DNA from: Escherichia coli
GTDB lineage: Bacteria; Pseudomonadota; Gammaproteobacteria; Enterobacterales; Enterobacteriaceae
Direction: 5' to 3' (one strand)
Assembly: GCF_003018115.1 (NCBI RefSeq)
Contig: NZ_CP027457.1
Length of the DNA: 64,000 bases
In this document: positions 2,231-3,165 of the stretch, piece by piece
How positions within the stretch are numbered: the first letter of the stretch is position 1
Layout of the letters: each line of letters opens with the position of its first letter
The notes under the pieces: model-generated
The model's input: only the letters and a program-made list of their open reading frames with translations
The model's database searches: none
Told to the model about the DNA's origin: nothing
Translations under genes and position numbers: made by a program

Positions 2231-3165
2231 TTAGTACTCGATCCATGGATCGCGCTTGCTTTCAGGCAAGGGTTGCTCTAATGCCTGCATTTGCTCTGCC
2301 GAAAGTCCAGTATATCGTTGTATCCATTCAGGATCCGCACCGTTCTGCAAAAGCAATCTAAGGAGGCGTTGTTCCCCTTCTTCTTTCCCCTTTTCCATCC
2401 CTAACAGCCATCCATCATTATGAATTCGCTCTGCAATCGTCATTATTCGCTCCCTTTGTTGTGGCATTCGACGGGTAAGTTCACTGATAAACTCATTAAA
2501 ACGCGCTTCATCGCCAGTCAGTAAAATGTAATTTAACAGCGCAGTTATCTGGCTGTCATTAGCACACTCTGTAACCAGTAATATTACCAGTTGATCGATA
2601 AGCCCCATCAGATCGCGCTGGCGAATATGCTTTTGGATCAACTCCAACAGGGCGACTCTGCGGTGCTGCACAATCTCGTCGTCAGGCACGACAGTGACAT
2701 CCACCAGCGGGAACGCTGCAGTATAAAGTTTCCGTGCAGTAGTCGGGTCGGCAAATTCGTCCAGCCAGCACAGGGACCAGGGATAAGGACTACGGCTACC
2801 GTGATAAAACAGCATCGGGATGACCAGCGGTAACGGCCGGCGTTTATCATGCTCGATATGGCGCTGCATCACCGCCATGGAATAGCGCATCAGGCGAAAG
2901 GCCATATGAATATCCTCACGGCTCTGATGTTCAATCACCACATAGATATAGCCATCACCTTCACGGGTCTCTACCGACCACAGAATATCGGAGTGTAGCT
3001 TTCATCGACAAAGCTGGCGGATTCCAGTTTTAAGCTGTCGAGATCGCACAGTTCACGTAAATCTTTGGGTAAGTGGATCTCCATAAAATCCCGCGCGGTG
3101 TCAGGATGCGTGAGAAAGGATTTAAATAATGCGTCATGCGGCGTGCTGGTCGTGAAGTTTGTCAT
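2231..3165 (-). pseudogene. rpnD: rpnD (yjiP/yjiQ) recombination-promoting nuclease, frameshifted
   Basis: Two adjacent minus-strand ORFs (2971..3165, N-terminus [36 protein letters not shown]; 2231..2941, remainder) in different frames that together span about 300 aa of an Rpn/YhgA-like protein; K-12 carries the same split as yjiP/yjiQ. Confidence 0.7.

Follow-up and report, generated by a model that had tools for sequence, protein, structure and literature searches.

A 10-bp deletion in rpnD of an Escherichia coli lineage: probable loss of the long nuclease form and an intact nested small frame

In the 64-kb stretch of Escherichia coli DNA analysed here (the window), the minus strand carries an rpnD gene from which 10 bp are missing in the 5′ part, and the small open reading frame nested in its 3′ part is intact. 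It is very probable that this deletion put an end to the long form of the protein and left the nested small frame untouched. In this explanation, the ancestral gene would have had two products: RpnD_L, a PD-(D/E)XK DNA endonuclease acting as a toxin, and RpnD_S, whose translation begins at an in-frame internal start and which serves as the antitoxin to RpnD_L. The single deletion in codons 56-59 would shift the long-form frame, translation from the native ATG would stop after 64 residues (55 native and 9 aberrant), and the remainder of the gene, with no start codon before V79, would leave the catalytic residues on separate pieces. Neither the RpnD_S frame nor its ribosome-binding site or candidate promoter is altered, so that continued synthesis of the small protein, now without its partner, is probable.

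The allele is an ordinary pseudogene, specific to one lineage, of a gene that was already known; it bears the label 'frameshifted' in RefSeq, and the biology of the family is published. What is gained over the earlier picture is the exact site of the lesion (3000/2999), its independence from the K-12 amber codon and its use as a marker of an O169:H41 / L7-type clone. Furthermore, rpnD emerges as a gene that is intact in most E. coli and repeatedly knocked out by different events, the nested RpnS frame usually surviving; when loci of this kind are recorded simply as pseudogenes, a small protein with continuing expression may be overlooked.

Identity of the gene and site of the lesion

Two minus-strand open reading frames, 3165..2971 (64 aa) and 2941..2231 (236 aa, GTG start), are consecutive pieces of one Rpn/YhgA-like gene lying in different frames, at the positions given in the preliminary description. 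The start of the 64-aa frame contains the ...ARDF motif of the Rpn N-terminal part, and its product matches positions 1-50 of the Pfam profile PF04754 (Transposase_31/YhgA-like; 69.4 bits, E=4e-19), the 236-aa product continuing over positions 73-202 (166.4 bits, E=8e-49; cut-off 21 bits). The NCBIfam Rpn models also match both fragments collinearly (positions 3-56 and 80-291 of the RpnA model NF007361). In a tblastn search with the repaired protein, frame -2 holds residues 1-56 and frame -1 holds residues 60-314, and no second Rpn locus is detected in the 64-kb window. One gene split in this way over two frames is far beyond chance expectation. The proposals that this is an Rpn paralog and that a frameshift has inactivated it are both confirmed, the first by the profile matches and the second by the two tblastn frames and by RefSeq, which annotates the identical 935-bp interval of strain F8111-1SC3 (NZ_CP024269.1) as 'Rpn family recombination-promoting nuclease/putative transposase', pseudogene, 'frameshifted'.

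When the frame is repaired, the match to PF04754 extends over positions 1-202 of 203 (289.3 bits, E=1.8e-86), and TIGR01784 is matched with 168.6 bits (cut-off 52.1). The repaired protein remains below the RpnA equivalog cut-off (380 vs 583 bits) and gives no match to solved structures at E<=0.01. The gene is flanked by mdtM and yjiR in the window, F8111-1SC3, EC1515, ATCC 25922 and K-12, and the window locus shares about 90% nucleotide identity with the K-12 yjiP/yjiQ locus. The mdtM-rpnD-yjiR synteny, together with the K-12 yjiP locus as the closest relative, identifies the window gene as the positional ortholog of rpnD (yjiP) rather than of rpnA, rpnB, rpnC or rpnE, in agreement with the name first given to it. 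The whole pseudogene occupies 2231..3165 on the minus strand (935 bp), compared with 945 bp and 314 codons for the ancestral gene.

The lesion was located by alignment to intact alleles, including EC1515 (945 bp) and ATCC 25922 (957 bp), and to K-12. The alignment to intact rpn genes had been suggested in the preliminary description, and it pinpoints the indel: the window gene lacks exactly 10 bp, AATTGCGGGC, corresponding to gene nt 167-176 in codons 56-59. The junction, placed by script, falls between 3000 and 2999 on the minus strand, and the same gap is obtained against GCA_043166065. The context is GATGAAA[AATTGCGGGC]GCTAC, where the brackets enclose the missing 10 bp, and its inspection reveals no evident microhomology at the deletion ends. 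The lesion had previously been placed around 2942-2970, which is wrong by about 30 nt; the deletion lies inside the upstream open reading frame, and the gap at 2942-2970 is set only by where the shifted frame first stops and where the following usable start codon is found.

After E55, the shifted frame reads through nine aberrant codons (SYTPIFCGR) and terminates with TAG at 2973-2971. The 5′ fragment (2971..3165, minus strand) comprises native residues 1-55, including D11, followed by the nine out-of-frame codons and the stop. The frame of the 3′ fragment is open from 3001, with no ATG, GTG or TTG before 2941; the fragment itself (2231..2941, minus strand) runs from a GTG corresponding to ancestral V79 to the native stop, contains E82 and Q84, lacks D11 and D63, and has another ATG 36 nt past the GTG.

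Putting the 10 bp back restores an uninterrupted 314-codon open reading frame with no further defect. The resulting 314-aa protein is exactly P0165, found on 26 contigs at the same mdtM/yjiR locus, and one allele encoding it (L007) differs from the window gene at 6 synonymous sites and by the 10 bp. L007 was considered as the direct parent of the window allele and rejected on account of the 6 synonymous differences within the gene. The intact EC1515 allele (WP_001612273.1) shows 96.9% DNA identity over 1.3 kb. Both EC1515 and P0165 alleles carry AATTGCGGGC and encode one continuous 314-aa protein, in contrast to the window allele, from which AATTGCGGGC is absent.

Between rpnD and yjiR, the window contains REP-type repeats (2100..2227), which lie outside the gene and belong to its context. 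This segment alone has a median of about 17 matching places per E. coli genome. A search of window positions 1-6500 against Rfam returned solely sub-threshold matches, to the REP-derived naRNA4 and ES036, located downstream of rpnD.

Distribution of the deletion and comparison with K-12

The junction reads GATGAAAGCTACAC with the deletion and GATGAAAAATTGCGGGCGCTACAC in its undeleted counterpart. Of 5,426 complete E. coli genomes, 3 contain an exact match to a 70-nt junction probe, and about 3,475 align to it with a 10-nt gap (80 nt spanned), which corresponds to undeleted sequence. The carriers are F8111-1SC3, the O169:H41 strain 2014EL-1345-2 and the ETEC isolate L7_E1373. Their alleles are 100% identical, indicating that the deletion is recent, and it is a derived marker of one clone of ETEC O169:H41 / L7 type. 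The relationship of the window to F8111-1SC3 is particularly close: the 1.3-kb rpnD region is 100% identical, the first 6.4 kb differ by 1 SNP, and the whole 64 kb are collinear at 99.82% identity.

An error of sequencing or assembly, in which the gene would truly be intact and the 10-bp gap spurious, is highly improbable. Within these 64 kb, F8111-1SC3 has several further genes annotated as 'frameshifted', and these could hint at indel-prone sequencing. However, the loss of 10 bp in non-repetitive sequence is unlike a typical homopolymer error, and the junction is common to three independently assembled complete genomes. Moreover, 214 public contigs from several sources encode the aberrant 64-aa product in identical form, which is therefore not a sequencing artefact. 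In 2014EL-1345-2, the pseudogene later gained an IS66 insertion on top of the 10-bp deletion. Taking into account the three complete assemblies and the 214 contigs, an artefact was rejected and the deletion is regarded as a real allele.

The split state had also been equated with that annotated as yjiP/yjiQ in K-12, and this part of the preliminary description does not hold. In both strains the gene lies in two open reading frames at the same chromosomal position, as a single ancestral split state shared by descent would have it. Nevertheless, the alignment leaves that reading with a negligible probability: K-12 MG1655 retains AATTGCGGGC, with no deletion, and its codon 104, which reads CAG in the window, has become an in-frame amber (CAG>TAG). 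The PGAP labels differ accordingly, being 'internal stop' for K-12 rpnD and 'frameshifted' for the window allele (as in F8111-1SC3), and the K-12 lesion has been described as a point mutation by which an in-frame stop is introduced too early (Kingston 2015, PMC4498929). A 70-mer centred on the K-12 amber is found exactly in 339 genomes, and among the matches listed all are K-12-type or laboratory strains. The two alleles share the chromosomal slot, the domain, the catalytic residues (once the window gene is repaired) and the nested small open reading frame, but they are only about 90% identical and differ in the number of C-terminal G-x-x-x units, with two in K-12 (RpnD_S of 62 aa) and four in the window (70 aa). 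Collectively, these differences indicate that the window deletion and the K-12 amber arose independently.

Some further differences between annotated genes were observed in the same region. In F8111-1SC3, the genes annotated as frameshifted include fimD (the usher of type 1 fimbriae) and that of a restriction endonuclease which binds phosphorothioated DNA; by collinearity with NZ_CP024269.1 they correspond to window positions of about 32550-35190 and 43880-44750, respectively. A DUF262/GmrSD gene located just outside the window, next to position 1, is split as well; in the relatives L009 and L010 this gene is intact (697 aa). The yjiS gene (DUF1127; window 236-434, minus strand) is intact, with a 59-aa open reading frame (415..236) that encloses the 54-aa form. 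For the same region of F8111-1SC3, PGAP gives two overlapping small coding sequences, one of 50 aa ('cytoplasmic protein') and one of 26 aa (DUF1127), which looks like an annotation quirk and not a lesion.

Predicted fate of the long form

In RpnA, any one of the substitutions D11A, D63A, E82A and Q84K is enough to eliminate recombination, toxicity and SOS induction, and with D63A the in vitro nuclease activity is lost as well (PMC5350276). Repair of the K-12 rpnD gene yields a product that is recombinogenic and, on overexpression, toxic (PMC4498929, PMC5350276). The repaired window protein, which is collinear with the RpnA model, has D11, D63, E82 and Q84 at RpnA numbering. After the deletion, D11 is present solely in the 64-aa fragment, and E82 and Q84 solely in the 3′ open reading frame from V79. 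D63 falls in neither, its open frame having no ATG, GTG or TTG upstream. Among the window open reading frames, no single uninterrupted polypeptide contains all four catalytic residues of a functional RpnL; from this we infer that RpnD_L is dead as a nuclease and toxin, the catalytic roles being those known for RpnA and not for RpnD. A 3′ product may be made, with either GTG 2941 or the ATG located 36 nt after it as the start.

The two frames overlap by about 30 nt (window 3001-2971), and a -1 shift within this overlap would yield a protein close to the native form but 3 residues shorter. Full-length or two-piece RpnD could in principle still come from programmed -1 frameshifting on the ribosome or from a split gene that has remained functional. 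This is nonetheless very unlikely, as the upstream open reading frame contains no canonical X XXY YYZ slippery heptamer, the undeleted gene is a single open reading frame in about 3,475 genomes, and the split is limited to one clone (3/5,426). Furthermore, neither annotated frame encodes D63, and IS66 further disrupts the gene in one strain of the lineage. Programmed frameshifting was rejected on the missing heptamer and on the split state not being conserved (3/5,426 genomes), and inactivation of the long form by the deletion is retained.

The nested small frame and other rpnD lesions

Rpn genes have been described as genes within genes, in which a full-length nuclease toxin, RpnL, contains an antitoxin, RpnS, produced from an internal start and an internal promoter (PMC10400941). 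The RpnS helix is built with four-residue repeats whose number varies among strains and sets the specificity (Zhong 2023, PMC10400941). Internal starts, an internal transcription start and RpnS proteins have been reported for all five MG1655 rpn genes, whereas the long forms detected in that strain are RpnB_L, RpnC_L and RpnE_L only (PMC10400941). The lack of detection of RpnD_L in MG1655 is consistent with the K-12 amber codon. The published antitoxin tests concern RpnA, RpnB, RpnC and RpnP2; RpnS acts specifically on its cognate RpnL, and stand-alone rpnS genes occur elsewhere (PMC10400941).

In the window, the nested RpnD_S candidate occupies 2231..2443 on the minus strand and encodes 70 aa with four G-x-x-x units. 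Its ATG (2443..2441) is located 7 nt after an AGGGAG ribosome-binding site. The deletion lies 557 nt upstream of this internal ATG, and both the RpnD_S frame and the ribosome-binding site are untouched. The window RpnD_S is identical to that of intact alleles, including the 70-aa form of EC1515, and this exact 70-aa sequence is called as a gene of its own on 126 contigs. Across alleles, RpnD_S lengths of 62, 66, 70 and 74 aa correspond to 2, 3, 4 and 5 G-x-x-x units in K-12, O157-like strains, the window and EC1515, and ATCC 25922, respectively. This series agrees with what has been described for other RpnS proteins, in which the four-residue repeats vary as well. An internal start with its ribosome-binding site and variable four-residue repeats, the features of a gene within a gene, are both present at the sequence level.

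A sigma-70-like promoter match (ATGACA-18-TAAATT, with TG) is found at 2530..2559 on the minus strand, with the RpnD_S ATG about 87 nt further downstream. The promoter scan returned 2 matches in the region vs 2.4 expected by chance, and the match at 2559..2530 is a possible internal promoter whose occurrence is not above chance. In Pfam searches, the 70-aa RpnD_S gave sub-threshold noise only; PF27070 (HTH_Rpn_C) is weakly matched by full-length relatives according to precomputed tables. Neither the repaired protein nor RpnD_S has a match in PADLOC-DB v2 (2023), a version that may predate the report on Rpn defence.

The RpnA and RpnP2 systems (PMC10400941) resemble rpnD in their architecture. 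The PD-(D/E)XK nuclease is N-terminal, the internal start is served by a ribosome-binding site of its own, and the C-terminal domain is variable, its four-residue repeats setting in about 11-15 residues past the internal Met. Unlike these antiphage toxin-antitoxin systems, the window rpnD has a broken long form, and its likeness to them is drawn from sequence. By analogy, RpnD_S is the putative antitoxin of RpnD_L, and the small protein may still be made in this lineage, as suggested by what is reported for K-12.

Intact rpnD appears to be the common state where the gene is present. All 7 alleles sampled blindly from an even spread of matches are intact, as are those of EC1515, ATCC 25922 and Z1323PEC0010; about 22% of complete genomes have no match to rpnD at all. 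Other lesions were found in alleles chosen for odd lengths. PapRG-04-4 lacks 1 nt at position 336, and 504239 lacks 7 nt at positions 388-394. E143 has a 125-bp insertion after nt 450 (L013:987-1111), AUSMDU00002545 lacks 1 nt at position 570 and carries a 25-nt duplication of the internal-start region, and in BL21 the gene is truncated by IS1 with loss of the S region. With seven events seen here, the alignments indicate that rpnD has been inactivated independently many times across E. coli.

Each of the six small lesions or insertions is located 5′ of the internal start; by length alone this has p ~0.2, which is not significant, and therefore no claim of selection is made. A related possibility is that the allele is dead as a toxin and kept for its antitoxin, with RpnD_S maintained by selection, for example because it neutralises incoming or paralogous RpnL with matching repeats. 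We consider this unlikely. The intact RpnD_S of the window, also present in K-12, PapRG-04-4, 504239 and AUSMDU00002545, would fit such a role, as would the upstream position of the six lesions, the detection of all five RpnS proteins in K-12 and the existence of stand-alone rpnS genes. On the other hand, the position of the lesions is not significant when length alone is considered, as given above, and the specificity of RpnS for its cognate RpnL speaks against a wider action. Furthermore, the deletion is recent, its carriers being 100% identical, and an intact RpnS needs no selection over such a time; BL21, for its part, has lost the S region through IS1. A stronger form of the proposal, in which rpnD 'pseudogenes' of this kind are functional antitoxin-only genes that produce RpnD_S from the internal promoter and start as an immunity or anti-addiction module, is distinctly unlikely. 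If true, it would account for the tendency of independent lesions (seven events) to fall in the 5′ region that belongs to the toxin alone. The preferred reading remains that of a recent loss of the long form in which the nested frame was left intact.

Two of these alleles present additional features. The 125-bp insertion of E143 (…GTGAATCCCCAGGAGCTTACAAAAGTAAGTGACTGGGGTGAATGA…) presumably resembles an ERIC/IRU-type repeat; it would be an intergenic-type repeat placed inside a coding sequence, and the window has no copy of it. In AUSMDU00002545 (L015:1260-1330), the 25-nt tandem duplication, ATGACGATTGCAGAGCGAATTCATA, spans the RpnS start codon and gives rise to two tandem candidate starts. The duplication also restores the frame lost to the 1-nt deletion 160 nt upstream, and RpnD_S of this strain is 66 aa long.
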